Assembly: GCF_029227855.1 (NCBI RefSeq)
Contig: NZ_CP074356.1
Origin: Escherichia coli
GTDB taxonomy: Bacteria; Pseudomonadota; Gammaproteobacteria; Enterobacterales; Enterobacteriaceae
Length of the DNA stretch: 64,000 nucleotides
Strand: one strand, 5' to 3'
This document shows, piece by piece, positions 11,599-60,127 of this stretch (positions are counted from its first letter, which is position 1; every line of letters begins with the position of its first letter). The notes below the pieces were generated by a model. It did no database searches. It was not told the origin of the DNA and worked only from the letters and a program-made list of their open reading frames with translations. A program made the position numbers and the translations under genes.

Positions 11599-11652
11599 CA
11601 AATGCTCCAGATATCTGCGCACCGAGAAGTGCGCAGAAAGATAATAAATGGA

Positions 11653-11779
11653 TATACTCTAAATAATTCGAGTTGCAGGAAGGCGACAATCGAGTGAATC
11701 CCCAGGAGCTTACATAAGTAAGTGACTGGGGTGAGCGAACGCAGACGCAGCACATGCAACTTGAAGTATGACGAGTATA
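11653..11779. repeat. ERIC (IRU) enterobacterial repetitive intergenic consensus element, 127 bp
   Basis: Contains the two classic ERIC core sequences gtgaatccccaggagcttacat and aagtaagtgactggggtgagcg with flanking inverted ends (agttgcagg ... tgcaactt); sits between the ybhI stop and the ybhJ start. Confidence 0.9.
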
Positions 11780-42644: not shown

Positions 42645-44213
42645 TTAGCGTGCCGGCTGAGTAGTCGTGGAAGACTGCTCAAAGTGATAGCGACCGGTTT
42701 TCAGGCTGCTTGGGCCGAGGCGTGCAAACTTGAACATTAAGAACAATTCTGCCACCAGGAACAGGGTATACAGGCCGCAAATCAGCACCATTGAGAAGAT
42801 GAGATCGCCTGCGGTCAGTGACGAGTTCGCCACAGCTGTCGGCAGCACTTCACCGATAGCCCACGGTTGGCGGCCATATTCAGCCACAAACCAGCCCGCT
42901 TCTACAGCAATCCACGGCAGCGGAATACCGTACAGCGCGGCGCGCAGCAGCCATTTTTTCTCGCCAATGCGGTTGCGGATGACACTCCAGAAAGAGAGCG
43001 CGATGATTGCCAGCAGTAGGAAGCCACACGCCACCATGATACGGAACGCGAAGTACAGCGGCGCTACACGCGGAATGGAGTCTTTGGTTGCCTGTTGAAT
43101 CTGCGCTTCAGTCGCATCAGCCACGTTTGGCGTATAGCGTTTCAGCAGCAGACCGTAACCGAGGTCTTTCTTCATGCTATTGAACTGGTCACGAACCGCC
43201 TGGTCGGTAGAACCAGAACGCAGTTGCTCGAGCAGAGAGTACGCCTTCATCCCGTTACGAATGCGTTCTTCATGCTGCACCATCAGTTCTTTCAGGCCGA
43301 TAACTGGAGTATCCACGGAACGCGTTGCAATGATGCCCAGCGCGTAAGGGATCTGGATCGCAAATTTGTTCGTCTCCTCTTCCTGATCAGGAATGCCGAA
43401 CAGAGTAAAGGCAGCAGGCGCAGGTTGCGTTTCCCACTCGGCTTCAATAGCAGCCAGTTTGGTTTTCTGCACGTCGCCCATTTCGTAACCAGATTCATCA
43501 CCCAGAACAATAACAGACAGAACGGCAGCCATACCGAAGCTGGCAGCGATAGCAAAGGAGCGTTTAGCGAAGGCGAAGTCACGACCTTTCAGCATATACC
43601 ATGCGCTGATACCGAGGATGAACATCGCGCCAGTCACATAACCAGACGCTACAGTGTGAACGAATTTCACCTGAGCAACCGGGTTAAGCACCAGCTCGGA
43701 GAAGCTCACCATCTCCATACGCATAGTTTCAAAGTTGAAATCGGACGCGATTGGGTTTTGCATCCAGCCGTTCGCAACCAGAATCCACAGTGCGGACAGG
43801 TTTGAACCGAGCGCCACCAGCCAGGTGACACACATATGCTGAACTTTACCCAGACGATCCCAACCGAAGAAGAACAGACCTACAAAGGTGGATTCGAGGA
43901 AGAAGGCCATCAGACCTTCGATTGCCAGCGGCGCACCGAAGATATCCCCTACATAGTGGGAATAGTAAGACCAGTTAGTCCCGAACTGGAACTCCATGGT
44001 CAGACCGGTAGCCACACCCAGAGCGAAGTTGATACCAAACAACTTGCCCCAGAACTTGGTCATATCTTTATAAATCTGTTTGCCGGAAAGGACGTAGACC
44101 GTTTCCATAATGGCCAGCAGGAACGCCATACCGAGCGTCAGTGGCACAAAAAGGAAGTGGTACATCGCGGTCAAGGCAAACTGTAAGCGCGACAGTTCGA
44201 CTATATCTAACAT
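42645..44213 (-). CDS. cydA: Cytochrome bd-I ubiquinol oxidase subunit I (CydA)
   Basis: [41 protein letters not shown]... (start taken at the second Met of the ORF-track protein); matches CydA. Confidence 0.96.
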
Positions 44214-44550
44214 CATGACTCCTTGCTCATCGCATGAAGACTCCGAGAGTGAACCCCGTTAGAAAGGGTCACACGCATGCCCCAATACAAAATTATTTGC
44301 TCGCCTCTATCGTTGCCATTTCATCAAAAGAGGAAAAGACAATGATAAAAAAGTTACAAATATGTTAATGAATAAACCAAATTGATCCCGTAATTATATT
44401 ACGCCGCAAAATCCTTACAATAAACATGTTTTTATTGAGCAAATTTGCATTTTTCGACAGTGATCAATTTATAGCGAAATTGTCACGATCTCACCAATTT
44501 GATCTACGACAATTTATCGTGTTTTGCAGATTTTTTTCAAGAATTAAAAA

Positions 44551-44564
44551 TTGATTTATATCAA
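44551..44564. promoter_or_regulatory. FNR-type box (TTGAT-N4-ATCAA) in the cydAB upstream regulatory region
   Basis: Perfect match ttgatttatatcaa about 340 bp upstream of the cydA start, within a long AT-rich leader; cydAB is a known FNR/ArcA-controlled operon. Confidence 0.65.
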
Positions 44565-45018
44565 AACCAACCAAATATGTTAATTGTGTATAAACCATAG
44601 ATCATTGGTGATTTTATTGTTAATTTATTGTGAAATATTTATGCAACACAATTATTACAATGAAAAGGTATAGATAAAAAACCAGTGTTTTATTTAACAG
44701 AACCGCCTTATCCACTTTTTATAATACCAATTGATTAGATTAGCCAATTTGTTGCTATTTTACATAACATATTTTTATCAAAGTTAATTGATTGTTGCGT
44801 TTATGAGCACCGGCCGTAAGCCCGTTATGTTATTGTTTCATTAGTAATAATCACTTAAATGTATCGATGAAACAGGTATGACTTAGCGGGAGTGATTGTT
44901 TCTGAGTGAACAGAGACCACTTTCGCCTGATAAATGAAAAATGAGCGATTTTTGCAAGTTAGTTTTTCTATAGCCGAGTACGCTCAGCGCCTCGCTTGAT
45001 TACAATGAGGTTGCTGCT

Positions 45019-45963
45019 ATGAGTCCTGATAATATCAGTTCTGCTGTCAATCGCTTCTCAGGTTGGCCATCTAATGATCCTCTAAAAACAGATAAAGAAT
45101 CAATGACATCACCCATGACTGTGCAGGTAATAAAGATGATTGCCGCCATCCTTGACCCACATCGGATAGTCGTTGGAATCGATACACTTTATACAACGCA
45201 GCGCGAAACATTTACCTCAGAGAGTCAACAGCTCATTGAATCAGCATTGCAAACACTTCATGTGATGAATTTAAATAACCTGGAAACAAATCTCGATGAG
45301 GAAGGTCACTATCTGGCTTTTGGATATAACGTTGACACTCCTGACAGAATAACCGTTTCTGCTTATAATGAAAAAAAGCCTGGCTGCTATGGCCAATGTC
45401 TTTTAATACAGGATGACGAAACAGACTTATTTAACCTGATAAAAGTTAAAATTTTTGAAGCCAGGCATAATTATGTCGCTCAATTGATGAGCGATCCGGA
45501 ATTTATGTTCAAATTTAGTTATAGCGCTCAACAAAATAGATTAGAACCTCATCTTCTGGTTCCCACTTATTTCCCTCTAAAAACAAACGAACCGGTTACG
45601 CAAGAGGATGTACTGTTACTTTATCGTTTCTTTAAAATGGATGGTGATTTTAATATATTAACATCAGATGAATACATGAGTATCATGACACCTCTAATGA
45701 AGTGTGAGCGTAGCATCCACGACCACAACAGGTATGTGACGGGCAAAGATACCCTTCTTCTGGACTATCCTCCTTCTGGTAACCAGATATATTTCCATAT
45801 TTTTCCTGACGAATCAGCAACACTAGTCCTTTATTTTTCAAACAATGACATTGAATGTTTCGTCTTTGAAAGAGATATTCCGAGCCAGTATCGCTTTTTC
45901 AAAATGTTTACCAATCTGGCACTGGTTATTGATCAGTTAACCGATGCCAATCAAATACTTTAA
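45019..45963 (+). CDS. Hypothetical protein, 314 aa, AT-rich accessory gene; no family recognised
   Basis: A long open frame in DNA that is markedly AT-rich (where chance ORFs of this length are unlikely); polar Ser/Thr/Pro-rich N-terminus (MSPDNISSAVNRFSGWPSNDPLKTDKESMTSP), no signal peptide or transmembrane segment evident. Confidence 0.6.
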   Translation: MSPDNISSAVNRFSGWPSNDPLKTDKESMTSPMTVQVIKMIAAILDPHRIVVGIDTLYTTQRETFTSESQQLIESALQTLHVMNLNNLETNLDEEGHYLAFGYNVDTPDRITVSAYNEKKPGCYGQCLLIQDDETDLFNLIKVKIFEARHNYVAQLMSDPEFMFKFSYSAQQNRLEPHLLVPTYFPLKTNEPVTQEDVLLLYRFFKMDGDFNILTSDEYMSIMTPLMKCERSIHDHNRYVTGKDTLLLDYPPSGNQIYFHIFPDESATLVLYFSNNDIECFVFERDIPSQYRFFKMFTNLALVIDQLTDANQIL

Positions 45964-46043
45964 TTTTTATATATTCCCTGTGGCAAATATTGCTAAACAA
46001 TGCCCGGGGATTAATTTTTATTACTCACGGAAAGATTTAAATA

Positions 46044-46466
46044 ATGATCCCATCTCAAATCTCTTTCAACACCCTTCCTGTCAATGCAACATACGCTTCA
46101 GAGACAACAGTTGACACACAAAAATTCTCTGACATCCTCTACTCAGCGGGGTGTTCCCTAAAGGATCTGGCTTATTTGAGCAGATGTCTGGCATCAATAC
46201 ATCCGACTATCGCCAAAAACATTTATGAAACAGAAAATCTCAGCGATCAAAAATTACTACATATTGATTGCCGTAGTACAAATGAAATCAAGATAAATAT
46301 CTTTTTTGGTCGACAACGAGAAGGATTAATTGAAATTAGTTCTGACACAGTCATTTTTTCGATACTGTCTTCATTGATTGACTCCACCATTTCTAAATTT
46401 CAACACCAAAACCCCGTTAACGGTTCTGTAAATCCTGACCTATTGTATGAGGATTATACTGATTAA
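46044..46466 (+). CDS. Hypothetical protein, 140 aa, AT-rich accessory gene; no family recognised
   Basis: ORF 81 bp downstream of the previous gene on the same strand; predominantly acidic, Ser/Thr-rich N-terminus (MIPSQISFNTLPVNATYASETTVDTQKF). Confidence 0.5.
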   Translation: MIPSQISFNTLPVNATYASETTVDTQKFSDILYSAGCSLKDLAYLSRCLASIHPTIAKNIYETENLSDQKLLHIDCRSTNEIKINIFFGRQREGLIEISSDTVIFSILSSLIDSTISKFQHQNPVNGSVNPDLLYEDYTD

Positions 46467-47013
46467 ATCCCTCCTGTCGCGAAAAATGGCCTGCGTTATT
46501 GCCAGACGTAATAAAACTTTTGATTAACGTTTCTCGTACTGGTAGCACCCTCATGTACTTTTCTTTTTTACGAAAAATCAAAAGAGCTAACAAAGGTCAT
46601 AATTCGCATGAATCATTAATTATTTGTTATTTTCAACATTATTTTTACATTAAGCAGAGATGAATTGCAGTGAAATTCGACTTAACTTTTATGAAATGCA
46701 TTTACTCATGGCTAAAGCCACGTCACAAAAATGCAAATTAGAAGTTGATCACAATTATCTCAATACATCAAATCAAGTTAATTTTAAAAATTTAACATTC
46801 ATGACATCAGTTGACATAACACACTGAATTAAAATGAGAATTTGAAAACACACTTTAAACAATCATTTCCCGAAAGACATTTTGAAAATAGATCAATTGC
46901 AACATTACGGTCAGATAAAGACACTCCTGTGATATTAAACCTGTGCCGTTATGAACGGCCATAAATACGACGTGTGTAACTTATTTTACTCTCTGTCTTA
47001 CAAAGGATTACCC

Positions 47014-47463
47014 ATGAAGAAAGCAACACTTGTGATTGGCGTTATTGGCGCGGACTGCCATGCAGTAGGCAATAAAGTTCTGGACCGCGTTTTTAGCAAC
47101 CATGGCTTCAGAGTCATTAATCTGGGCGTAATGGTCAGCCAGGACGAATATATTGATGCTGCCATTGAAACTGGTGCTGACGCGATTGTCGTCTCCTCTA
47201 TCTATGGGCATGGCGATATCGACTGTCTGGACATGCGCGAACGCTGCATCGAGCGTGGACTGGGGGACATCCTGCTCTATGTGGGCGGTAACCTGGTGGT
47301 CGGAAAACATGACTTCGCTGACGTGGAAACCAAATTCAAAGAGATGGGATTTGATCGCGTCTTTGCCCCAAGTCATGACTTAGAAGATGTTTGTCAGCTG
47401 ATGGCCCACGATATCAACCAACGTCATGACGTTGATACTCGTATTCTTGAAGAGGCAATCTGA
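47014..47463 (+). CDS. Glutamate mutase S (sigma) component, B12-binding subunit (methylaspartate mutase small subunit)
   Basis: From the ATG at 47014 (AAGGAT ribosome-binding site): [62 protein letters not shown]...; the DxHxxG cobalamin-binding motif (DCHAVG) and strong similarity to clostridial GlmS/MutS as I remember it. The ORF-track upstream extension is rejected. Confidence 0.88.
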
Positions 47464-48851
47464 TGCAAATCGTCTCTGTCGATATTGGATCGACGTGGAC
47501 CAAAGCAGCCCTCTTCGCCCGGGAGGGGGACGCGTTAACGTTGGTTAACCACGTACTGACCCCAACCACCCCCCATCATCTGGCGAAGGGGTTTTTCTCC
47601 AGTCTGAACCTGGTGTTAAACGTAGATGATGCCCTCCCCCTGTTTAACAGCGGTGAGGTTGCATTGAAGTATTCCTCCTCTGCCAAAGGTGGGCTGGCGG
47701 TTGCCGCAATGGGATTGGTGCCTTCTATCACCCTGGAAACCGCGAAAGTAACCGCTCACTCTGCGGGGGCTAAAATTGCGCAATATTACGCCTACAAGCT
47801 GAACCGCCGTGATATCCAGGCACTGGAAGAAACGCAGCCCGATATTCTCTTGTTCACCGGCGGCACCGACGGCGGAGAAGAAAGCTACGGCCTGAATAAC
47901 GCCCGTGTGCTGGCAGAATCCAAACTCGACTGCGCCATTATTTATGCCGGAAACCGGGATATTCAGGACAAGGTGCAGGAGATCCTAGGGCATAAAGACC
48001 TGACCATCGTCGACAACGTTCTGCCCGATCTTGACCATCCGAACCCTTTAGCTGCACGCCAGGCTATCTGCGACATATTCCTTAAACGCATCGTTAAAGG
48101 GAAAGGGCTGGATGTCGTTGTTGATAAAACAGGCGAAGAACCAATGCCGACACCGTGGACAGTCTTTGAACTGGTTAAGGCAATCAGTAATGTCGATCAC
48201 AGCTGGAAAGAGTTCATGCTGATCGACATGGGCGGCGCAACCACCGATGTCTATTCCGCCTGTGCCAACACGCTCTCGCCCGACACCGTTTTACACGGCG
48301 TACCGGAACCCTTCGTGAAACGGACGGTGGAAGGCGATCTGGGAATGCGCGTCTCGGCAATGGTGGTTGGTGAAAGTGCGAAAGAGTTAGTCAATGTGAA
48401 TTTTGCTCAGCAACCCGCACAGCTGGACGCTTTTTATCATTACCTCCGTCATCTAGTCGCTCATCCCGACTACTTACCCGCGAATTCAGAAGAAAAATAT
48501 TTCGATACCGTCCTGGCCGGACTGTGTGTGGGTTATGCCACCGAAAGACATGCGGGCACCAAAAAAGAGGTCTGCACCTGCGTCGGCAATGTCGATTTAC
48601 AGATGGGACGTGACCTGACAACCGTGCGTAAAGTCGTCGGATCCGGCGGATGGCTCTCGCGTGCCAGTCAGTTCGATATGCATCACTGGTTGAAATACCG
48701 CAAGTTAAACGACGACGGTAAACGCATTCTCTTACCGACCGAATTTGAATATTACCGCGATTCCCGGGGGCTATTACCATTGCTGGCAAACGTCGCCAGA
48801 GTCGATCCGCTGGCCGCCGCGCGCACCAGTATTCAATGCTTAACCCTATAA
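47463..48851 (+). CDS. Glutamate mutase L component (MutL/GlmL-like accessory/reactivating protein)
   Basis: 462 aa [39 protein letters not shown]... (actin-like ATPase N-terminus); start overlaps the stop of the preceding gene (TGATG); position between the S and E subunits as in clostridial operons. Confidence 0.8.
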   Translation: MQIVSVDIGSTWTKAALFAREGDALTLVNHVLTPTTPHHLAKGFFSSLNLVLNVDDALPLFNSGEVALKYSSSAKGGLAVAAMGLVPSITLETAKVTAHSAGAKIAQYYAYKLNRRDIQALEETQPDILLFTGGTDGGEESYGLNNARVLAESKLDCAIIYAGNRDIQDKVQEILGHKDLTIVDNVLPDLDHPNPLAARQAICDIFLKRIVKGKGLDVVVDKTGEEPMPTPWTVFELVKAISNVDHSWKEFMLIDMGGATTDVYSACANTLSPDTVLHGVPEPFVKRTVEGDLGMRVSAMVVGESAKELVNVNFAQQPAQLDAFYHYLRHLVAHPDYLPANSEEKYFDTVLAGLCVGYATERHAGTKKEVCTCVGNVDLQMGRDLTTVRKVVGSGGWLSRASQFDMHHWLKYRKLNDDGKRILLPTEFEYYRDSRGLLPLLANVARVDPLAAARTSIQCLTL

Positions 48852-48869
48852 CAATTAAGGCTGCAATCA

Positions 48870-50315
48870 ATGGAACTTCGAAATAAGAAATTAACCCATG
48901 ACGAATTCATGACCGAGCGGCAACAGGTACTGAAAACCTGGGAAACCGGCAAGGATGTTGAAAACTTTGAAGATGGCGTTAAATACCAACAAACCATTCC
49001 TGAGCATAAACGCTTCTCTCTTGCGCTGTTGAAAGCAGACAAGGAAGGTAAAACCCTTAGCCAACCGCGCGCAGGTGTGGCGCTGATGGACGAACACATC
49101 GAACTACTGAAAACACTACAAGAAGAGTGCGATCTGCTGCCGAGCACTATCGATGCATATACCCGTCTGAATCGGTACGAAGAAGCGGCTGTAGGGATTA
49201 AAAAATCCATCGAAGCCGGAACCTCTAAACTGAACGGTTTGCCGGTAGTTAACCATGGCGTCGCAGCTTGCCGTCGCCTCACCGAAACCCTGCAAAAACC
49301 GCTACAGATCCGCCACGGCACGCCAGATGCGCGTCTGCTGGCTGAAATCTCGATGTCCAGCGGCTTTACCAGTTACGAAGGCGGCGGCATTTCCTACAAC
49401 ATTCCGTATGCCAAACGCGTAACGCTGGAAAAATCGATCCGCGACTGGCAGTACTGCGACCGTTTAATGGGGATGTATGAAGAACACGGGATCCGCATCA
49501 ACCGCGAACCGTTTGGCCCACTAACAGGTACGCTGATCCCGCCGTTTATCTCGCACTCTATCGCGATAATCGAAGGCTTGCTGGCGCTGGAACAGGGTGT
49601 GAAATCTATCACCGTTGGTTATGGACAGGTCGGCAGCCTGACGCAGGATGTTGCGGCGATCCAGTCTCTGCGTGAACTTGCACACGAATATTTTCAGAGC
49701 TATGGCTATACCGACTATGAATTAAGTACCGTGTTTCACCAGTGGATGGGCGGCTTTCCGGAAGACGAATCGAAAGCGTTCGCTATTATCTCCTGGGGCG
49801 CAGCCGTCGCGGGGATGTCTGGTGCCACCAAAGTCATCACCAAAAGCCCGCACGAAGCCTGGGGTATCCCGACTGCCGCTGCCAACATTCAGGGGCTGAA
49901 AGCCTCCCGCCAGATGCTCAACATGGTCAACGAGCAGAAATTCCCGCCGTGCCCTGCGGTTGAACTGGAAATTGAACTGATTAAGAGCGAGGTTCGCGCG
50001 GTACTGAATAAAGTGTTCGAACTGGGTAATGGTGATATTGCGCGCGGTACGGTGCTGGCATTTGAAGCGGGCGTACTGGATGTGCCGTTTGCGCCAGCCG
50101 CCTGCAACGCGGGCAAAATTCTTCCGGTCCGTGACAACACCGGCGCGATACGCGTACTGGAAGCCGGAGCCGTTCCATTGCCAAAAGATATTCTCGACCT
50201 CCACCACGATTACGTTGCTGAACGCGCACGCTTTGAAGGACGCCAACCGACATTCCAGATGGTTGTAGATGACATCAATGCTGTATCCCACAGTAAATTA
50301 ATAGGAAGACCATAA
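48870..50315 (+). CDS. Glutamate mutase E (epsilon) catalytic subunit (methylaspartate mutase large subunit)
   Basis: 481 aa ORF MELRNKKLTHDEFMTERQQVLKTWETGKDVENFEDGVKYQQTIPEHKRFSLALLKADKEGKTLSQPRAGVALMDEHIELLKTLQ... matching remembered GlmE/MutE. Confidence 0.88.
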   Translation: MELRNKKLTHDEFMTERQQVLKTWETGKDVENFEDGVKYQQTIPEHKRFSLALLKADKEGKTLSQPRAGVALMDEHIELLKTLQEECDLLPSTIDAYTRLNRYEEAAVGIKKSIEAGTSKLNGLPVVNHGVAACRRLTETLQKPLQIRHGTPDARLLAEISMSSGFTSYEGGGISYNIPYAKRVTLEKSIRDWQYCDRLMGMYEEHGIRINREPFGPLTGTLIPPFISHSIAIIEGLLALEQGVKSITVGYGQVGSLTQDVAAIQSLRELAHEYFQSYGYTDYELSTVFHQWMGGFPEDESKAFAIISWGAAVAGMSGATKVITKSPHEAWGIPTAAANIQGLKASRQMLNMVNEQKFPPCPAVELEIELIKSEVRAVLNKVFELGNGDIARGTVLAFEAGVLDVPFAPAACNAGKILPVRDNTGAIRVLEAGAVPLPKDILDLHHDYVAERARFEGRQPTFQMVVDDINAVSHSKLIGRP

Positions 50316-51556
50316 TGAAAATAAAACAGGCCCTTTTTACCGCTGGCTACTCCTCATTCTATTTCGATGACCAGCAGGCGATAAAAAACGGAGCGGGTCA
50401 CGACGGTTTTTTTTATACCGGGGAGCCAGTAACACAGGGGTTTAACGCCGTACGTCAGGCCGGGGAGTGCGTATCGGTACAGTTGATTCTGGAAAACGGC
50501 GCGGTCGCCGTAGGTGACTGTGCTGCCGTACAGTATTCCGGGGCAGGCGGTCGCGATCCACTGTTCCTCGCGGAGCACTTTATTCCGTTCCTCAACGACC
50601 ATATCAAGCCATTACTGGTAGGCCGCGATGTGGATGTTTTCCTGCCGAATGCCCGTTTCTTCGACAAATTGCGTATTGACGGCAACTTGCTGCATACCGC
50701 CGTGCGCTACGGATTATCACAGGCTCTGCTTGATGCTACCGCGCTGGCAACCGGCCGTCTGAAAACTGAAGTGATCTGTGATGAATGGCAGTTGCCACGC
50801 GTGGCGGAATCCATTCCATTATTTGGTCAGAGCGGGGACGATCGATATATCGCCGTCGATAAGATGATCCTTAAGGGCATCGACGTGCTGCCCCATGCGC
50901 TGATTAATAACGTCGAAGAGAAGCTGGGCTTTAAAGGTGAAAAACTGCGCGAATATGTCCGCTGGTTGTCGGATCGCATTCTGAGCAAGCGCACCAGCGC
51001 ACGCTACCACCCAATCCTGCACATCGATGTATACGGCACTATCGGTCTGATCTTCGATATGGATCCGCTTCGCTGTGCGCAATACATCGCCAGCCTGGAA
51101 AAAGAAGCGCAAGGCCTGCCGCTCTACATTGAAGGGCCGGTCGATGCCGGTAACAAGCCCGATCAAATTCGCCTGCTGACCGCGATTACCAAAGAGCTGA
51201 CGCGCCTCGGTTCCGGCGTGAAACTAGTGGCCGATGAATGGTGTAACACCTACCAGGATATTGTTGATTTCACAGATGCCGCCAGTTGCCACATGGTGCA
51301 AATCAAAACCCCGGATCTGGGCAGTATTCACAACATCGTCGATGCAGTTCTTTATTGCAACAGCCACAGCATGGAAGCGTACCAGGGCGGCACCTGCAAT
51401 GAAACTGATGTCAGTGCCCGCACCTGTGTCCACGTCGCCCTTGCCGCTCGCCCCATGCGTATGCTGGTAAAACCAGGGATGGGCTTTGACGAAGGCCTCG
51501 ATATCGTCTTCAACGAAATGAATCGTACTATCGCGCTGTTGCAGGCTAAGGATTAA
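50315..51556 (+). CDS. 3-methylaspartate ammonia-lyase (methylaspartase; enolase superfamily)
   Basis: 413 aa ORF MKIKQALFTAGYSSFYFDDQQAIKNGAGHDGFFYTGEPVTQGFNAVRQAGECVSVQLILENG... with conserved blocks (CAAVQYSGAGGRDPLFLA, QSGDDRY, LPHALINNVEEKLG, HMVQIKTPDLG, AKPGMG) shared with the clostridial enzyme; start overlaps the preceding stop. Confidence 0.9.
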   Translation: MKIKQALFTAGYSSFYFDDQQAIKNGAGHDGFFYTGEPVTQGFNAVRQAGECVSVQLILENGAVAVGDCAAVQYSGAGGRDPLFLAEHFIPFLNDHIKPLLVGRDVDVFLPNARFFDKLRIDGNLLHTAVRYGLSQALLDATALATGRLKTEVICDEWQLPRVAESIPLFGQSGDDRYIAVDKMILKGIDVLPHALINNVEEKLGFKGEKLREYVRWLSDRILSKRTSARYHPILHIDVYGTIGLIFDMDPLRCAQYIASLEKEAQGLPLYIEGPVDAGNKPDQIRLLTAITKELTRLGSGVKLVADEWCNTYQDIVDFTDAASCHMVQIKTPDLGSIHNIVDAVLYCNSHSMEAYQGGTCNETDVSARTCVHVALAARPMRMLVKPGMGFDEGLDIVFNEMNRTIALLQAKD

Positions 51557-51559
51557 CAA

Positions 51560-52930
51560 ATGGCTCGTTCTTTTAAAGTCTTATCGCCAACGGCAATCCT
51601 CGGGTATGGATTCCCGGAAGAGAGCTTCCGCAAAGCGATGGCAGAATCGCCCGATCTGATCGCCGTTGATGCAGGCTCTTCCGATCCTGGCCCCCACTAC
51701 CTCGGGGCGGGCAAACCGTTTACCGATCGCGCAGGGGTCAAGCGCGATCTGCGCTATATGATCACCGCAGGCGTGCAAAATAATATACCGGTGGTGATCG
51801 GAACGGCCGGCGGTTCTGGTGCCGCTCCACACCTGGAGTGGTGCCGAGAAATAATTCATGAGATTGCCCGGGAAGAGCACCTCTCGTTCTCGATGGCGTT
51901 GATCCCGGCAGACGTTGACAAAGCCATCGTCCACCAGGCGCTGGATAACGGCAAAATCACGGCGCTGGAGTTTGTCCCGCCGTTAACCCACGACGCGATT
52001 GACGAAAGTACGTATATCGTTGCGCAAATGGGCATCGAACCCTTCCAGCGGGCGCTGAAAGAAGGCGCGCAAGTGGTGCCGGGCGGGCGCGCTTACGACC
52101 CGGCCTGCTTTGCTGCGCTTCCGATCATGCAAGGCTTTGATGAAGGTCTGGCGCTTCATTGTGGGAAAATCCTTGAATGCGCGGCAATCGCCGCAACGCC
52201 CGGCTCAGGCTCTGACTGTGCGATGGGCATCATTGATGACAACGGCTTTACGCTGAAGACATTTAATCCGAAGCGTAAATTTACCGAAACGTCAGCAGCT
52301 GCACACACACTGTATGAGAAATCCGATCCCTACTTCCTGCCTGGACCTGGCGGCGTGTTGAACCTGAAAGGCTGCACATTTAAAGCGGTCAATGACAGCG
52401 AAGTGTACGTCAGCGGTTCTAAGCATGAAGAAACGCCGTATTCCCTGAAACTGGAAGGTGCGCGACGGGTGGGCTTCCGCTGTCTGACCATCGCAGGAAC
52501 GCGCGACCCGATCATGATCGCCGGGATCGATAAAATCATCGATGAAGTCAAAACCAGCGTTTCGCGTAACCTGTCGCTCGACGATGACAGCATTCACATC
52601 AATTTCCACCTGTACGGCAAAAACGGGGTGATGGGCGACCATGAACCGATGCAAACTGCCGGGCATGAGCTGGGGATTGTCCTAGATGTAGTTGCGCCGA
52701 CCCAGGAAATTGCCAACAGCGTTTGCTCGCTGGTGCGCTCTACTATGCTGCACTACGGCTATGAAAACCGCATCGCTACCGCAGGCAACCTGGCGTTCCC
52801 GTTCTCCCCTTCTGATATCCAGGGCGGGCCGGTATACGAATTTTCCATATATCACCTGATTGAAGCCAACGACGCTCTGCGTTTTGATTTCCATATTGAA
52901 CAGGTGACGCCAGAAGGAGTTCAGGCATGA
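51560..52930 (+). CDS. Conserved hypothetical protein, 456 aa (possibly DUF1446/AtuA-like; assignment from memory, unverified)
   Basis: ORF MARSFKVLSPTAILGYGFPEESFRKAMAESPDLIAVDAGSSDPGPHYLGAGKPF... begins 4 bp after the methylaspartase stop; no catalytic motif I can name. Confidence 0.6.
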   Translation: MARSFKVLSPTAILGYGFPEESFRKAMAESPDLIAVDAGSSDPGPHYLGAGKPFTDRAGVKRDLRYMITAGVQNNIPVVIGTAGGSGAAPHLEWCREIIHEIAREEHLSFSMALIPADVDKAIVHQALDNGKITALEFVPPLTHDAIDESTYIVAQMGIEPFQRALKEGAQVVPGGRAYDPACFAALPIMQGFDEGLALHCGKILECAAIAATPGSGSDCAMGIIDDNGFTLKTFNPKRKFTETSAAAHTLYEKSDPYFLPGPGGVLNLKGCTFKAVNDSEVYVSGSKHEETPYSLKLEGARRVGFRCLTIAGTRDPIMIAGIDKIIDEVKTSVSRNLSLDDDSIHINFHLYGKNGVMGDHEPMQTAGHELGIVLDVVAPTQEIANSVCSLVRSTMLHYGYENRIATAGNLAFPFSPSDIQGGPVYEFSIYHLIEANDALRFDFHIEQVTPEGVQA

Positions 52931-53244
52931 AACAGTCAATTGTCTCACTGGCGCAAGTCATTCGTTCGAAAAATGCCGGACCTTACGAACTGGTTTTAGA
53001 TATTTTATTTAAAACGAAAGAAAACTATGAGCGAGTTAAATCATCAGGGCAATTAACCCCAGAACTGATTGCGCGCTTATATCATGTTGAACCTGACTTT
53101 ATTCACCGTATTGTCTGGTTTGATCCTTCTAACGCAGTAAAAATCGTCATGCCACGAGATATTATCTCCGGGAATGTAGGTGACAATGATGTCTATGGTG
53201 CACAGCAACATGCACCTTTATTAAATATGAGTTTCGATTTGTAA
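52927..53244 (+). CDS. Conserved hypothetical protein, 105 aa (possibly DUF4387-like partner of the preceding gene; unverified)
   Basis: ORF MKQSIVSLAQVIRSKNAGPYELVLDILFKTKENYERVKSSGQLTPELIARLYH...; start codon overlaps the stop of the upstream gene (ATGA), implying translational coupling. Confidence 0.55.
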   Translation: MKQSIVSLAQVIRSKNAGPYELVLDILFKTKENYERVKSSGQLTPELIARLYHVEPDFIHRIVWFDPSNAVKIVMPRDIISGNVGDNDVYGAQQHAPLLNMSFDL

Positions 53245-53404
53245 AAATCCGAATACTTTTAGCCAACTGACATCCCGTCACTTATTGCAGTTCAACACTT
53301 CAGCTATTTGTAAGGTTGTAATAGCAGGTAGATGCCTGAATCTCTATTCAGGCATCTACTTCTCCTGATTCTGATTTATCGCCGTGCACCTGATGGAGGA
53401 AAAA

Positions 53405-54685
53405 ATGAAGAAAATAAGTTTAACCACGATGATTCTTTTGGCGCTGGTACTTGGAATGATTATCGGCGTAGTGCTCAATAACACTGCTTCACCGGAAACC
53501 GCAAAACTCTATGCGCAAGAAATATCGATATTCACGACGATTTTCTTACGACTGATAAAAATGATTATCGCTCCGTTAGTGGTCTCTACCCTGGTGGTAG
53601 GTATAGCTAAAATGGGCGATGCCAAAGCCCTTGGTCGTATTTTTTCTAAAACACTCTTTTTATTTATTTGCGCCTCATTGCTGTCAATTGCCTTAGGCTT
53701 GATAACAGTAAATTTCTTCATGCCAGGCACAGGAATTAATTTTGTTGCACACGGAGCCGAAACCACCGGAGTGGTCGCGTCAGAACCCTTTACGCTAAAA
53801 GTATTTATTTCGCATGCTTTCCCCACCAGCATTGTCGATGCCATGGCGCACAATGAAATTTTGCAAATCGTGGTGTTCTCAATTTTCCTCGGCTGTAGCC
53901 TGACGGCGATTGGCGAGAAAGGCAGCGCCATCGTTCACGCCTTAGATTCGCTGGCACATGCCATGTTAAAGCTCACTGGCTACGTCATGCTCTTCGCTCC
54001 CCTGACCGTATTCGCTGCTATTTCAGCATTGATTGCTGAACGAGGACTGGCAGTTATGGTGAGCGCCGGGATCTTTATGGGTGAATTTTATTTCACCATG
54101 TTATTACTTTGGGTGCTGCTTATCGGTCTGGCCATCGTTTATGTTGGCCCCTGCATCAGACGCCTGACCCGCGCCCTTTCGGAACCCGCCCTGCTGGCAT
54201 TTACCACATCCAGTTCTGAAGCGGCTTTTCCGGGAACGCTTGAAAAACTGGAGCAATTTGGCGTTTCCCCAAAAATTGCCAGTTTTGTCTTACCCATTGG
54301 CTACTCATTTAATCTCGTTGGATCAATGGCCTACTGCTCCTTCGCCACAGTTTTCATCGCCCAGGCCTGCAATATCCATTTATCCATCGGTGAGCAAATC
54401 ACCATGCTGTTGATCCTGATGTTGACCTCGAAAGGAATGGCTGGCGTACCACGCGCCTCAATGGTGGTTATCGCCGCCACGCTCAACCAGTTCAATATTC
54501 CGGAAGCGGGGCTGATCTTGCTGATGGGCGTTGATCCGTTCCTTGATATGGGGCGTTCAGCGACAAACGTCATGAGCAACGCAATGGGCGCTGCGATGGT
54601 GAGTCGGTGGGAAGGCGAACATTTCGGCGAGGGCTGTCGGGGTAAAGCATTAAAACCCAATGAATCGAACGTTGCTCTGCCCTGA
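53405..54685 (+). CDS. Dicarboxylate/amino acid:cation symporter (DAACS family; GltP/DctA-like)
   Basis: From the ATG at 53405 (GGAGGA ribosome-binding site): MKKISLTTMILLALVLGMIIGVVLN... multi-pass membrane protein with DAACS-type layout; substrate not inferable from sequence alone. Confidence 0.8.
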   Translation: MKKISLTTMILLALVLGMIIGVVLNNTASPETAKLYAQEISIFTTIFLRLIKMIIAPLVVSTLVVGIAKMGDAKALGRIFSKTLFLFICASLLSIALGLITVNFFMPGTGINFVAHGAETTGVVASEPFTLKVFISHAFPTSIVDAMAHNEILQIVVFSIFLGCSLTAIGEKGSAIVHALDSLAHAMLKLTGYVMLFAPLTVFAAISALIAERGLAVMVSAGIFMGEFYFTMLLLWVLLIGLAIVYVGPCIRRLTRALSEPALLAFTTSSSEAAFPGTLEKLEQFGVSPKIASFVLPIGYSFNLVGSMAYCSFATVFIAQACNIHLSIGEQITMLLILMLTSKGMAGVPRASMVVIAATLNQFNIPEAGLILLMGVDPFLDMGRSATNVMSNAMGAAMVSRWEGEHFGEGCRGKALKPNESNVALP

Positions 54686-54792
54686 GGGGGATCTTAAGCA
54701 ATCAGAAGCCAATGACTACGCATTTTTATAAGCCGGATCATGAAGTTAGACGGCAATTAAGTAAAACTAACGTTTAAGGTGAAAAGTGAAAT

Positions 54793-56445
54793 ATGTCCAA
54801 ACCATTTATCTGGCAAGAACCGTTTCTACAAAATAAAGACGGTACAGAATATACATTAATTAGCGATCAACATATTACAGTAACGGAATTAGACGGCGAA
54901 GAAGTAATAAAAATCGCTCCTGAAGCATTAACGCTGCTTGCCCGGCAGGCATTTTATGAAGCCTCTTTTTTCTTACGTTCCGCTCATTTGCAACAGGTCG
55001 CCAGCATTCTTAACGATCCGCAGGCCAGTAGTAATGATAAATACGTTGCGTTGCAGTTATTACGTAATGCTGAAGTCTCAGCAAAAGGGGTATTACCCAA
55101 CTGTCAGGATACCGGCACCGCAACTATTGTTGCCAGTAAAGGGCAACAGATATGGACGGGAGGTAACGACGCTGAAGCCTTAAGCAAAGGCATTTACACC
55201 ACTTTTCAGGAAAATAATCTGCGCTTTTCACAAAATGCGCCACTGGATATGTTTACCGAAGTCAATACGCAAACCAATCTCCCGGCGCAGATTGATATCA
55301 GCGCCGTCGCTGGTGATGAGTACCATTTTCTCTGTATTAATAAAGGGGGCGGCTCTGCCAATAAAGCCGCGCTTTATCAGGAAACCAAATCCCTATTGCA
55401 ACCAGAAAAACTGACCGCATTTTTAATCGAAAAAATGAAATCGCTGGGCACCGCTGCCTGCCCGCCTTACCACATCGCCTTTGTCGTCGGAGGACTTTCA
55501 GCCGATCAAACCTTAAAAGTTGCCAAGCTGGCCTCAACGAAATATTACGACAATTTGCCCACCAGCGGAAACGAGCAAGGACAAGCATTCCGTGATATTG
55601 AGCTGGAAAAAGTATTGCTCGAGGCCAGTCAGCAATTTGGTATTGGTGCGCAATTTGGGGGTAAATATTTCGCTCATGATATTCGCGTCATTCGTCTGCC
55701 GCGTCACGGTGGCTCTTGCCCGATAGCTATGGCGCTCTCCTGTTCTGCGGATCGCAATATCAAAGCAAAAATTAACAAGCACGGTATCTGGCTGGAAAAA
55801 CTCGAACACAATCCGGGGCAATATATTCCAGCCTCACTGCGGGAAGAAAATCACGCGCAACATGTACAGCTGGATCTAAACCGTCCGTTGCGTGACGTGA
55901 TGCAGGATCTCGCCAGATTACCGGTAGGCACCCGCGTGTCGTTAAGTGGTCCCATCGTAGTGGCGCGCGATATCGCCCACGCCAAAATAAAAGCGCGGCT
56001 GGATAGCGGCGAACCGATGCCGGATTACCTGAAGCATCATATTGTCTATTACGCTGGCCCGGCGAAAACACCGGAGAACATGGCCTGCGGTTCACTGGGT
56101 CCAACCACGGGCGGTCGAATGGACGGTTATGTCGATACCTTCCAGGCGGTTGGCGGCAGTCTGGTGATGTTATCGAAAGGTCACCGCAGCCAGCAGGTCA
56201 CCGATGCCTGTCACAAACATGGCGGCTTCAATCTGGGAAGTATTGGCGGTGCAGCTGCGTTACTGGCGCAAGAATATGTCAAAAGTCTGCGTTGCCTGGA
56301 ATACCCGGAGCTGGGTATGGAAGCGGTGTGGATGATGGAAGTGGAAAATCTGCCCGCATTCATCCTGGTAGATGATAAAGGCAATAATTTCTTTAGTCAG
56401 TTTGAGCAGCAACACCGCTGCGCCAGTTGCCCTGCGGGACATTAA
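54793..56445 (+). CDS. fumD: Class I (Fe-S) fumarate hydratase paralogue; probable mesaconase/fumarase
   Basis: 550 aa [65 protein letters not shown]... collinear with remembered FumA/FumB (e.g. [41 protein letters not shown] blocks). The symbol is from my recollection of a described O157:H7 paralogue. Confidence 0.85.
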
Positions 56446-56454
56446 GGAAAATGA

Positions 56455-57057
56455 ATGGAAGCGCGAATTTCAACTGAACGGCATGTGCAGCGCCAGCAGA
56501 AATTGAAGGAACAGGTCGATACGCGCATCGCGGCGGCGATAGAGAAAAAAGGGATTTTGATTGTTTTCACCGGCAATGGCAAAGGGAAATCCACTGCCGC
56601 GTTTGGTACTGTGACGCGCGCGGTGGGTCATGGCAAAACGGTGGGGGTTGCGCAGTACATCAAGGGGCAATGGGACAACGGCGAATACAACCTTCTCCAG
56701 CCGCTGGGGGTTGAGTTTCATATTATGGGAACCGGTTTTACCTGGGAGACACAGAACCGGCAAGCGGATATCGACGCGGCGAAAGAGGTCTGGTCGGAAA
56801 GCAAACGGATGCTGGCTGACAAGCGTTACGACTTAGTGGTGCTTGATGAGCTGACCTATATGCTGGCTTACCATTATCTGGATACCGAAGAAGTGATCGC
56901 TTCTCTGCAAAACCGCCCGGCACAACAAAGTGTCATTGTCACCGGACGCGGTTGCCACAGTCAGATATTAAAAATGGCGGATACGGTCAGCGAAATCCGC
57001 CCCGTCAAACATGCTTTTGATAACGGCATTCAGGCGCAGCCGGGTATCGACTGGTAA
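56455..57057 (+). CDS. Cob(I)alamin adenosyltransferase paralogue (CobA/BtuR family)
   Basis: 200 aa ORF with P-loop GNGKGKSTAAFG and blocks shared with E. coli BtuR (RAVGHGK, TGFTWETQNR, LDELTYM, GRGCH, ADTVSE, RPVKHAF). Confidence 0.85.
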   Translation: MEARISTERHVQRQQKLKEQVDTRIAAAIEKKGILIVFTGNGKGKSTAAFGTVTRAVGHGKTVGVAQYIKGQWDNGEYNLLQPLGVEFHIMGTGFTWETQNRQADIDAAKEVWSESKRMLADKRYDLVVLDELTYMLAYHYLDTEEVIASLQNRPAQQSVIVTGRGCHSQILKMADTVSEIRPVKHAFDNGIQAQPGIDW

Positions 57058-57090
57058 TAACTGCGCCTGGCATCCCGCCAGGCGCAGGTT

Positions 57091-57996
57091 TTACATCTCC
57101 TGCGGTACAACCGATTTCGCCAGCAACCATTCACGAAATTGCTGCAAGTGCGGTGAGTCAGACTTCTCTTCCTGCCACGTCATAATAAAACGATTACCGG
57201 TACGAATAGGCACATCACAGGGGATCACCATATCGCCACTATCCAAATCATGTTGAATAGCGAAACGTGGTAACAGCGCCACGCCGAGATTAGAGCGCAC
57301 GGCGGCAATCAGCATTGAAAGCAAATCGAAACGTGGTCCGTTGTTGACCAGTGGACTGCTAACGCCAGATAAAGCAAACCACTCTTCCCAGCCAGTAATA
57401 CGGGTGCTTTGATGCAGAAGTGGTAACTCAGTAAGCAGTTCTGCCACTGACAGTTTTTGATCGGACATTGCAAGCAAACTGCCGCTGCATACCGGCAAAA
57501 TCTCCTCATCAAAGAGATATTCTACTTCCGCCCAGGGCGCGCAAAAATTTTCGCGCATAATGACAGCATCGTACTCCCGATTAAGAAAATCGCCGTTATT
57601 AGCTAAAGAGTGAATATTAACAATAATATCGGGATGTAACTTTGTGAATTCATGTAAATTTGGGATTAACCAGTGGGTACTAAACGTAGGATTCACGGCA
57701 AGTTCAATAACCTGAACCGTAGGCTGCCAGGTCATAATAGTATTGGTATCGCGTTCCAGCTTATTTAATGTTTCTTTTACTATCCCCAGGTAATACTTCC
57801 CTGCATCATTAAGAAAAATACGTTTTTTAGAGTGTGAAAATAACGGAGTATGTAAAAATTCCTCCAGCGCACTCACTTGTCTGAATACAGCACTTTGGGT
57901 TAACGCTAACTCCTCTGCCGCTCTGGTATAACTTTCATAACGTGCGACGACCTCAAAAGTCACCAGCAGCTCCGTTTTAGGTATTTTTCCTCGCAT
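57091..57996 (-). CDS. LysR-family transcriptional regulator
   Basis: Minus ORF with N-terminal helix-turn-helix (LVTFEVVARYESYTRAAEELALTQSAVFRQVSALEEFL) and a LysR substrate-binding domain; start assigned to the Met of MRGKIPKTELL (the ORF track begins 10 codons upstream); start uncertain. Confidence 0.8.
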   Translation of the reverse strand: MRGKIPKTELLVTFEVVARYESYTRAAEELALTQSAVFRQVSALEEFLHTPLFSHSKKRIFLNDAGKYYLGIVKETLNKLERDTNTIMTWQPTVQVIELAVNPTFSTHWLIPNLHEFTKLHPDIIVNIHSLANNGDFLNREYDAVIMRENFCAPWAEVEYLFDEEILPVCSGSLLAMSDQKLSVAELLTELPLLHQSTRITGWEEWFALSGVSSPLVNNGPRFDLLSMLIAAVRSNLGVALLPRFAIQHDLDSGDMVIPCDVPIRTGNRFIMTWQEEKSDSPHLQQFREWLLAKSVVPQEM

Positions 57997-58209
57997 AATT
58001 CCGTCCGTGAAAAAATAACAATTCAAAAATTATTTTATAAAAAACAGTAGCACTAATGAATATCATAATTCAAATAAACAAACCAGTCAGCTATATGTCT
58101 AACCAGGAAAATAAAGTGACAATAATCCTAAAACAGGAATTTCACCTCAGTTATCCGCATGCAATACTTTAAAGCTATTATTGCAAGAATATTATTCATA
58201 TACATGAAT

Positions 58210-58334
58210 ATACTCTAAATAAGTCAAGTTGCAGGAAGGGAACAAATAATGAATTTCCAGAAGCTTACATAAGTAAGTGACCTGAGTGAGCGAACATCGA
58301 TGCAGCACATGCAACTTGAATTATGACAAGTATA
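58210..58334. repeat. Diverged ERIC (IRU) element
   Basis: tatactctaaataagtcaagttgcaggaagg ... agcttacataagtaagtgacctgagtgagcgaac ... gcagcacatgcaacttgaattatgacaagtata aligns along its length with the ERIC copy at 11653-11779, with substitutions. Confidence 0.8.
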
Positions 58335-58585: not shown

Positions 58586-59983
58586 ATGCATCATCTTTCA
58601 AGGCTTGATAAAGCCTTTCTGCGCAAAGGGATCCAACTTTCCCGCGCCAACAATATTGTTTCATTATCTCGTCCATCAGGTGCCAGTGCCCGCGTACTGC
58701 TGCCGGACGAACTGCCGCTGGAAGAAAAAGCAGTAACACAACTGCTTGATTTTGCAGAAGTGAAGCTACCAGACCACCCAGGTTATGTGCGCCAGACGTG
58801 CGCGACGCCAGATTTTCATCCCGGCAATGGCGTCCCCGTTGGCGCGGTGGTGGCCTCAACGCCGGATTTAGTCATTCCCGCCGCCATCGGCACCGATATT
58901 TCTTGTGGCATGCGGCTGCTGACGACCGGATTAACACTTGAGCAAGCCGAAGCGCATAAAGACATCATCGCTCAGCGGTTAACGCAAGTGCTGCTGCAAA
59001 ATGAGCGCGATGTTCCGTTATCCGCACAGGCGTTCACTGCGCTTTTTGATGGCGGACCGGCAGATTGCGTGTCGACCTTGCCATCAGCAGGTCTCTGGAC
59101 ACGCACGAATATCCCCCGAATGGTACAAGAGATTGACTGCTGCATTGGGCTTAACGAGCATAACAGTCATTCGCGTTATGCCCCACCCGCCCTGCTGGCA
59201 ACGGACCGCGCATTACTCCGCGATCCTTGTCTGGGTACGCCGGGTTCAGGTAATCATTTTATTGAACTTCAGGTCGTTGATAGCGTGGTTGATCGCCATG
59301 TAGCCTGGCAACAAGGGCTGAAAACAGGCGATATTGTGGTGATGATCCACAGTGGATCGCGAGATGTTGGCTTTTACGTCGGAAGACGCTGGATGGATCG
59401 CGCCCGTGCTGAATGGCCCACCGGACATAAACATCCACAAAGCGGGTTATATGGTCTGGCAGGCGGACTGGCGGAGGAATATCTACAAGCGATAGGAATG
59501 GCTGCGCGTTACGCGTGGTTAAATCGCGTCACAATTGCCGAAATGGTGCGCGTATGTCTCGCCAATCTCTTTCATCAGGACAATTCGCATCTGGTGGTGG
59601 ATGTGCCGCATAACATCATCCTTCGCGAGCATGAAATGAATATTCATCGCAAAGGTGCAACACCGGCACGAGTGGGCGATCTGGCATTAATCCCCGGTTC
59701 AATGGGCGATTATTCGTGGCTTGCAGTCGGTTGCGGCAACCCGGAGTGGCTGTGGTCATGCAGTCACGGAGCAGGACGCAGCCAGCGTCGACAGGCCATG
59801 CGCTCAAGCGCGACTGAAGAGTCAACGCTGCCGTGGCAATGCGTCACATTGCGTGAAGAACGACGTCTTGAAGAAGCGCCAGCGGCTTATAAAGATATTG
59901 GTCCGGTTATCGAAGCCCAACAAGAAGCCGGATTAATTCAACCAGCGGTCAGATTTCGACCGTGGTTAACGTTTAAGGGGTAA
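58586..59983 (+). CDS. RtcB-family protein (RNA 3'-phosphate ligase paralogue), 465 aa
   Basis: ORF with RtcB-like blocks: TPDFHPGNGVPVG, GTDISCGM, GSGNHFIEL, HSGSRDVG, HNIILREHE, SCSHGAGR. No rtcA, rtcR or prfH-like gene adjacent. Confidence 0.8.
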   Translation: MHHLSRLDKAFLRKGIQLSRANNIVSLSRPSGASARVLLPDELPLEEKAVTQLLDFAEVKLPDHPGYVRQTCATPDFHPGNGVPVGAVVASTPDLVIPAAIGTDISCGMRLLTTGLTLEQAEAHKDIIAQRLTQVLLQNERDVPLSAQAFTALFDGGPADCVSTLPSAGLWTRTNIPRMVQEIDCCIGLNEHNSHSRYAPPALLATDRALLRDPCLGTPGSGNHFIELQVVDSVVDRHVAWQQGLKTGDIVVMIHSGSRDVGFYVGRRWMDRARAEWPTGHKHPQSGLYGLAGGLAEEYLQAIGMAARYAWLNRVTIAEMVRVCLANLFHQDNSHLVVDVPHNIILREHEMNIHRKGATPARVGDLALIPGSMGDYSWLAVGCGNPEWLWSCSHGAGRSQRRQAMRSSATEESTLPWQCVTLREERRLEEAPAAYKDIGPVIEAQQEAGLIQPAVRFRPWLTFKG

Positions 59984-60127
59984 CTGAAATGATAAATGGC
60001 CTGCGGTTCTCACGCAGGTCAAATCTGGTATCTGCGTAAGCTAACAAACTTGTTTATCAACAATCTCAGGCCATCCGAAGATGGCCTGAAATTATTGCCC
60101 CCCTTAGATACACTTTTAGCGCAATAA

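Follow-up and report, generated by a model that had tools for sequence, protein, structure and literature searches.

The AT-rich spacer upstream of cydA in an Escherichia coli chromosome is probably a native cydAB control region, with the K-12 spacer as a likely replacement allele

The closest described counterpart of the DNA analysed here is the cydAB control region of Escherichia coli K-12. There, an 847-bp spacer between mngB and cydA carries five promoters and appears as H-NS-associated in a published listing (PMC3946193). For this region, with P1 and four other promoters, later papers (PMC3688515, PMC3798270, PMC3946193) cite Cotter et al. 1997 and Govantes et al. 2000. In K-12, H-NS silences cydAB, phosphorylated ArcA (ArcA-P) counters H-NS, and FNR represses P1 (PMC3798270, PMC3688515). 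Myers et al. place the K-12 cydA FNR site at −53.5, with support from chromatin immunoprecipitation sequencing (PMC3688515, Table 1). Two further systems bear on the locus. The methylaspartate cluster of O157:H7, with its mesaconase FumD, was described by Kronen and Berg (2015) in 26.5% of E. coli strains (PMC4682846), and ‘switched’ intergenic regions were described by Thorpe et al. 2018 (PMC5890482). Here we examine the spacer upstream of cydA in a 64-kb stretch of E. coli chromosome (the window), which an initial annotation made from the sequence alone had read both as cydAB control DNA and as the junction of an inserted island. We conclude that positions 44214–44854 are probably a native, vertically inherited Escherichia cydAB control region and not island DNA, and that the K-12 spacer is probably the replacement allele.

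The window was identified by a 100% match of a 1.3-kb probe across the feature to strain JNEC-KY178; the RefSeq annotations of this identical strain and of O157:H7 supplied the gene calls around cydA. The spacer covers 805 bp (44214–45018) and separates cydA, on the minus strand, from a plus-strand open reading frame (ORF) of 314 amino acids (aa). The cydA ORF itself extends over 42645–44216; RefSeq starts the gene at 44213, and the initial annotation took the in-frame ATG at 44216. GC content is 33.2% over 44217–45018 and 28–29% over 44288–44854, in agreement with the AT-rich stretch of about 800 bp first noticed 5′ of cydA. The annotations of identical and near-identical strains place the region upstream of the orthologous cydA-cydB-cydX-ybgE operon, and the FNR, P1 and ArcA sequence landmarks are in place, so its assignment to cydAB control was right. 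On sequence grounds the spacer belongs to the family of oxygen-responsive cydAB control regions, every sequence-level hallmark that we tested having been found (Table 1).

The perfect FNR-type box noted by the initial annotation lies exactly where it was placed and is the sole perfect TTGAT-N4-ATCAA in the window, with 0.13 expected by chance. An FNR box occupies the same aligned position in 18 of 19 other sequences from Escherichia, Citrobacter, Salmonella, Klebsiella, Pseudescherichia and Enterobacter. The exception is one Citrobacter with TTGAC as its left half, and the Atlantibacter extract stopped short of this position. In K-12 (U00096.2 coordinates), the centres of the two FNR-type boxes fall at 770339.5 and 770391.5. 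Because the FNR site is published at −53.5, the K-12 P1 start falls at 770393 and the second box at −1.5. From the same site and the coordinate map we infer a P1 transcription start near 44504 in the window, where the proximal box, its centre likewise 52 bp from that of the distal box, would overlap it. A promoter scan gives the P1 core as TTGAAA-18-TAAATT, and the aligned K-12 position has TTGGAA-17-ATAAAT.

ArcA boxes were scored with a position weight matrix (PWM) built from 112 published boxes with the three cydA boxes left out. The K-12 site sequences came from the supplementary tables of PMC3798270, and all three map exactly to their reported positions. Three predicted ArcA-P binding regions are present upstream of cydA in the window. 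At the most proximal, K-12 has its cydA3 box 135–152 bp upstream of the ATG, at 14.7 bits. The cydA2 equivalent is a cluster of boxes at 44577–44594 (12.5 bits), 44606–44623 (14.7 bits) and 44617–44634 (20.6 bits). The last lies 404–421 bp from the ATG and its neighbours at 364–381 and 393–410 bp, as compared with 401–418 bp for the K-12 box (12.3 bits); this motif also aligns in Salmonella, Klebsiella, Citrobacter and Enterobacter kobei. The two boxes at the cydA1 position are 551–568 and 568–585 bp upstream of the ATG (573–590 bp in K-12), and the window box scores lower than the K-12 box and has the reverse orientation. Two of the three regions fall within the stretch that has no BLAST alignment to K-12. 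The 28% GC of 44288–44854 would fit H-NS occupancy and silencing as in K-12.

Salmonella, Klebsiella, Pseudescherichia and E. kobei retain recognisable FNR boxes, P1 hexamers and ArcA regions 2 and 3, as well as the 32-bp block at 44395–44426, and thus the site layout is ancient. By this comparison both E. coli alleles follow it; what sets them apart is chiefly the strength of the sites and the sequence that separates them.

The 1.3-kb probe matches 5,425 of 5,426 complete E. coli genomes, which sort by the extent of the match into three spacer haplotypes. The entire probe matches in 1,135 genomes with the cluster-linked haplotype; in a TPR-type haplotype (∼1,124 genomes), represented by strain A26 with the order sucD, TPR gene, cydA and no cluster, the match runs to 44854 at ∼93%; and in the K-12-type haplotype (∼3,178 genomes) it reaches only 44584, at 87.5%. 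A26 differs from the window at three positions in 44288–44566 (98.9% identity), is ∼20% divergent to 44854 and is unrelated beyond. Between the window and K-12 there is one difference in 43600–44287, which comprises ∼690 bp of the cydA end and leader (∼0.15%), and 75 in 44288–44584 (∼25%), 26 of which are packed into 44300–44349. BLAST finds no similarity to K-12 past 44584, where K-12 has 475 bp in the place of 15.5 kb in the window.

The spacer variants split 3,172 against 2,245 genomes (58% against ∼41% of the 5,426). The K-12-type spacer is uniform, with at least 99% identity across 3,175 genomes, and the window-type family is more varied within E. coli (88.6–100% identity). Window-type carriers include 536, 042, an ST69 strain and O157:H7, which we take to belong to phylogroups B2, D, D and E, respectively. 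The K-12-type carriers, 58% of sequenced genomes, are probably phylogroups A, B1 and relatives; if the K-12 spacer is a replacement, strains of B2, D, E and related groups would keep the native Escherichia region, as the window does. The 3′ end of K-12 mngB, on the far side of the spacer, is likewise mosaic relative to the window, being 28% divergent in its last 100 bp and 1–2% divergent ∼2 kb in. In this comparison, made over window positions 60125–62200, mngB differs from that of K-12 by 11–19% over the 400 bp adjoining its divergent last 100 bp. The two MngB proteins are 95% identical overall and ∼60% identical in their last 37 residues; comparison of the C-terminus with Citrobacter left the ancestral mngB 3′ end not discernible.

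A 20-mer common to both alleles, scanned against one genome per species, matched E. albertii, the Escherichia spp. E1V33 and MOD1-EC7003, E69 (labelled E. coli) and several Citrobacter. It also returned two spurious matches and a contig from a metagenome-assembled genome, probably of E. coli, with 99% identity to the window. Over 44288–44566, identity to the window is 98.6% in MOD1-EC7003, 95.3% in E1V33, 93.9% in E69, 92.9% in E. albertii, 78–84% in Citrobacter species and only 71.4% in K-12, whose spacer is 73–77% identical to those of Citrobacter. The series from MOD1-EC7003 to Citrobacter falls roughly as vertical descent would predict. The closeness of MOD1-EC7003, which also shares the gene order of the window, could mean that E. 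coli acquired the window-type spacer jointly with the cluster from another Escherichia species and that the K-12 spacer is the original. We regard this as highly improbable. MOD1-EC7003 is also ∼2% divergent in the flanking cydA, so the spacer has no excess similarity, and identity declines with phylogenetic distance. Moreover, window-type alleles are diverse within E. coli and occur in 536, 042 and O157:H7, presumably spread over phylogroups B2, D and E, and the K-12 allele has no match among those of Escherichia and Citrobacter.

On the reading of the initial annotation, a K-12-like backbone took up an island inside the cydAB control region, so that the spacer past ∼44585 would be island DNA and might rewire cydAB or drive the first island gene. 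The end of BLAST similarity to K-12 at 44584 and the exchange of 475 bp for 15.5 kb fit such an insertion, as do the AT-rich first 2 kb past 45019 (35–38% GC). Clear similarity to K-12 is indeed lost inside the spacer, but in place of a single insertion point there are nested boundaries: the K-12 drop at 44288, the A26-type divergence at ∼44567 and a structural boundary at 44854/44855. The first of these lies deep in the part that the two strains should have in common. The last, which lies past the control region, is the sole recurrent structural break, at which the A26-type haplotype, E69 and E1V33 all lose homology; outside E. coli with the cluster, only MOD1-EC7003 (82%) and E. albertii (74%) retain the 164 bp beyond it. 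The suggested alignment to K-12 did not extend over the full 800 bp, so that full alignment, the outcome that had been named as fatal to an insertion here, did not occur; even so, the breakpoint reading finds no support.

The supposed island part is also present where there is no island. The segment 44288–44854 occurs in ∼1,100 cluster-less E. coli genomes as well as in E. albertii and two further Escherichia species. Collinearity with the window extends in E. albertii from cydA as far as 46069 (82% identity) and in MOD1-EC7003 across the spacer, into the 314-aa gene and up to glmS, so both have the whole junction. The 96 bp at 44715–44810 are 88–97% identical across Escherichia species, against 64–80% in adjoining stretches. 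Elsewhere, the methylaspartate cluster adjoins cydA in Citrobacter amalonaticus (81% identity) and in Pseudescherichia. Because of this collinearity, this conserved block and these other placements of the cluster beside cydA, the distal spacer does not appear to be island DNA. The ArcA boxes in the contested stretch, moreover, match the distances of K-12 cydA2 and cydA1 from the ATG. Between cydA and mngB the annotation shows no integrase, tRNA or transposase, and the border has no flanking direct repeats, only short two-copy repeat families within 44150–45100. Judged by its sequence, then, 44214–45018 has neither the single discrete breakpoint nor the mobility hallmarks nor the absence from related species that an island junction should show. 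The first gene past the spacer does start at 45019, as annotated; no plus-strand promoter was predicted for it by a consensus scan, which speaks against the distal part as the proposed promoter source for a first island gene. The insertion model is largely refuted, and we give it little chance of being correct.

Tree building points the same way as the identity series. We built neighbor-joining trees from ∼310 aligned columns (313 bp) with 300 bootstraps, adding Salmonella, Klebsiella, Atlantibacter, Pseudescherichia and E. kobei, which were found via YbgE homologs (the look-up also returned a noisy long-read assembly whose genes were fragmented). The Escherichia-type alleles form a clade without K-12 in all 300 bootstraps, with and without the five added genera. 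The K-12 allele joins this clade in five of 300, and its branch in the tree lies outside Escherichia and Citrobacter taken together. The K-12-type spacer looks like a highly divergent replacement, or ‘switched’, allele with the same site layout, and on the simplest reading of the alignments the ancestral Escherichia spacer is the one in the window. One possibility, which we hold less likely than not, is that an ancestor of the K-12-like lineages swapped its ∼0.8 kb spacer and the mngB 3′ end for a copy from an unsampled enterobacterial lineage.

Without any transfer, the two spacers would be old alleles, or the K-12 spacer a fast-evolving descendant, that diverged in place with only the binding sites under constraint. 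Blocks of identity between scrambled spacers are seen in all genera, Escherichia-type alleles are already 20–25% divergent from one another in stretches of the spacer, and no donor is found among the genomes compared, all of which such divergence would accommodate. It accounts poorly for a divergence of 25–29% beside a cydA that differs by ∼0.15%, and for the uniformity of the K-12 allele across more than 3,170 genomes. K-12 shares states with Citrobacter and not with Escherichia in several blocks, one of them GAAAGGTT.CAAACATGTTAAT.AAAAACTC. Its near-exclusion from the Escherichia-type clade and the mosaic mngB 3′ end argue in the same direction. We consider divergence in place unlikely, though a better candidate than insertion of an island.

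Several observations weigh against replacement of the K-12 spacer and a native control region in the window. There is no K-12-like donor allele among the 12 Escherichia and Citrobacter matches, nor a K-12-like allele in Salmonella, Klebsiella, Atlantibacter, Pseudescherichia or E. kobei; an exact CydX sequence look-up for a donor returned E. coli contexts only. Spacer DNA outside the sites changes quickly in all lineages; over 44567–44714, for instance, E. albertii is only 75% identical to the window. Rapid divergence in place or long-branch effects in a 313-bp neighbor-joining tree are possible, and the drop at 44288 may mark the edge of constraint, the segment before it being ∼99% conserved even in Citrobacter, and not a recombination endpoint. 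At least one perfect TTGAT-N4-ATCAA arose in 13 of 100 shuffles, so that counting alone leaves chance possible for the distal FNR box, although its conserved position across genera speaks for a real site. The enrichment of ArcA boxes over shuffles is modest, with seven PWM hits in the window against 1.7 ± 1.4 and a maximum of eight. Finally, the assignment of alleles to phylogroups is based on a few well-known strains.

On the reading that we prefer, a native control region and a replaced K-12 spacer, the mechanism known from K-12 would carry over. H-NS would coat the 28%-GC DNA and silence cydAB in air. At low oxygen, phosphorylated ArcA at the three box clusters, ∼140, 400 and 570 bp upstream of the ATG, would relieve silencing, and in full anaerobiosis FNR bound at 44551–44564 (−53.5) and at the weaker site 44499–44512 (−1.5) would shut P1. 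The 164 bp at 44855–45018 would be part of the divergent 314-aa gene, and the sucD–cydA interval would carry mngRAB, the methylaspartate cluster, a TPR gene or nothing. Since the K-12 landmarks all keep their positions, cydAB control in the window probably works as in K-12. The result is thus deflationary. The initial annotation had suggested that the island could alter cydAB regulation; because the spacer is, as far as its sequence can tell, a normal cydAB switch and not the product of an island insertion, there is no reason to expect island-driven rewiring.

Table 1. Features of the spacer upstream of cydA and its borders (window coordinates)
Feature	Position	Strand	Basis and remarks
cydA (cytochrome bd-I subunit I)	42645–44213	−	ORF list and RefSeq annotation of the identical strain and O157:H7
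Proximal cydA leader	44214–44287	−	Identical in all E. coli haplotypes; 98.6–99.3% in Citrobacter
Variable spacer inside leader	44288–44350	−	Base comparison; abrupt identity drop against K-12; variable among Citrobacter too
ArcA box, equivalent of K-12 cydA3 (predicted)	44351–44368		PWM, 20.1 bits; 138–155 bp upstream of ATG
Invariant 32-bp block (44395–44426) with candidate promoter TTGTAA-16-TATAAT (44420 to 44393)	44393–44426	−	Promoter scan, 10/12 matches
Proximal FNR-type site, TTGATctacGACAA	44499–44512		About −1.5 relative to P1; aligns to K-12 TTGATcgagAACAA
P1 core promoter (putative)	44512–44540	−	−10 ATAAAT (44517 to 44512), 17-bp spacer, −35 TTGAAA (44540 to 44535)
Distal FNR box, TTGATTTATATCAA	44551–44564		Equivalent of K-12 site at −53.5; aligns to K-12 TTGATAAATATCAA
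ArcA-box cluster, equivalent of K-12 cydA2 (predicted)	44577–44634		PWM and position
Conserved distal block with ArcA boxes 44764–44781 and 44781–44798 at the K-12 cydA1 position	44715–44810		Conservation and PWM
5′ flank of 314-aa ORF	44855–45018	+	164 bp, 41.5% GC; beyond structural breakpoint
314-aa hypothetical ORF, divergent from cydA	45019–45963	+	ORF list; RefSeq hypothetical protein

Conservation near the 5′ end of cydA extends beyond the regulatory sites. Escherichia, Citrobacter and K-12 have an identical 32-bp block, which is almost unchanged in five further genera. Over 43850–44287, which takes in the 72-nt proximal leader and the first ∼120 cydA codons, the window differs from Citrobacter by ∼3%, compared with ∼15% over the remaining gene. 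Synonymous changes number 0–5 per 20 codons in the 5′ stretch of cydA, as against ∼7 further in, and comparisons with Klebsiella and E. kobei show this constraint as well, that with Salmonella more weakly. A structured RNA was rejected as the cause of leader conservation: the fold of the proximal leader is insignificant (z = +0.36), and an Rfam scan of 44000–47000 at a permissive threshold returned only a chance microRNA match (E = 0.97). Likewise, an antisense ORF of 116 aa (43836–44186) was rejected as an overlapping gene, with five, three and one stops in Salmonella, Klebsiella and E. kobei, respectively.

On the other side of the spacer, two AT-rich ORFs of 314 and 140 aa (45019–46466; 35–38% GC) lie between cydA and the methylaspartate cluster, and neither has a match in Pfam, NCBIfam or PADLOC. 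The two make up a module distinct from the cluster and are absent in E1V33 and Citrobacter. The 314-aa homolog is frameshifted in E. albertii, which has it without the cluster, and is broken by ERIC elements in MOD1-EC7003. The cluster itself (46951–58026) encodes glmS, glmL, glmE, methylaspartate ammonia-lyase, an AtuA-like gene, DUF4387, a symporter, the class I fumarase FumD, cobO and a LysR regulator. Past it the window has an ERIC element, an rtcB-family gene and mngB/mngA. The RtcB-family RNA ligase gene (58586–59983; PF01139, E = 8e-95) stands alone between the LysR gene and mngB, and is not in the O157:H7 or K-12 arrangements. Two ERIC (IRU) elements of ∼127 bp were found in the window, at 11652–11779, with an exact ERIC2 primer site at 11716–11737, and at 58208–58334, between the LysR and rtcB-family genes and with three mismatches to the primer site.

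In E. coli, at least five gene orders occur in the sucD–cydA interval: mngRAB alone; mngRAB with rtcB and the cluster; the cluster alone; a TPR gene alone; and mngAB with a TPR gene. In other genera mngB adjoins cydA (E. kobei, C. sedlakii) or sucD does (Salmonella, Klebsiella, Atlantibacter). Because gene arrangements differ among genera, the interval is an old variable slot, and it resembles a hotspot of long standing that takes up alternative metabolic cargo and has no mobility genes.

The wider interest of the locus lies in the K-12 spacer, which is the allele behind all cydAB regulation experiments and yet apparently the derived one. Some 41% of complete E. coli genomes, among them O157:H7, 536 and 042, differ by 25–29% from the region that was footprinted, ChIP-studied and used for promoter work in K-12, and caution is needed because K-12 coordinates and site affinities are not simply transferable to pathogenic strains. 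Two alleles with one layout and differing site sequences also make a natural pair for studying the role of spacer DNA and site strength in microaerobic induction. Cytochrome bd induction at low oxygen is linked to gut colonisation. If the K-12 spacer was indeed replaced, this induction could differ systematically between phylogroups.

Against the best-studied system, the K-12 cydAB region, the window agrees in its position beside a near-identical cydA, in AT-richness and length, in the P1 −10 hexamer and its 17-bp spacing, in a perfect FNR box at −53.5 with a second box 52 bp downstream, and in three ArcA regions. It differs by 25–29% from 44288 outward, with no BLAST similarity past 44584, and in individual sites. 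The −35 hexamer is TTGAAA in the window and TTGGAA in K-12, the right half-site of the proximal FNR box is GACAA in the window and AACAA in K-12, and ArcA boxes 3 and 2 score 20.1 and 20.6 bits in the window as compared with 14.7 and 12.3 bits in K-12. The upstream neighbour is a divergent ORF in the window and the end of mngB in K-12. Among papers that mention mngB, cydA and ‘intergenic’, natural variation of the spacer is apparently not addressed, as far as titles and abstracts tell.

The cluster of the window is the O157:H7 methylaspartate cluster, with 98.3% identity over 12 kb, and its junction occurs in 20.9% of the complete genomes analysed here. The window has mngRAB and the rtcB-family gene beside it, and the O157:H7 arrangement lacks both. 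The account of this cluster in PMC4682846 makes no mention of cydA, an island or horizontal transfer.

The concept of ‘switched’ intergenic regions, or horizontal regulatory transfer, was reportedly set out by Oren et al. in 2014. As in such cases, two spacers less than 90% identical (71.4% in 44288–44566) stand beside a near-identical cydA within one species. The K-12 variant may also depart from species relationships, since all 300 bootstraps exclude it from the clade of Escherichia-type alleles. A literature search did not find cydA named as a case of regulatory switching. The cydA variants differ from switched regions in that both are still homologous and keep the layout of binding sites, and the switch may be nearly neutral for function. 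With that difference, the dimorphism between K-12 and the window fits, on present alignments, the known class of switched intergenic regions, and a cydAB regulatory region in which the reference strain carries the replaced copy would be a new example of a known phenomenon.

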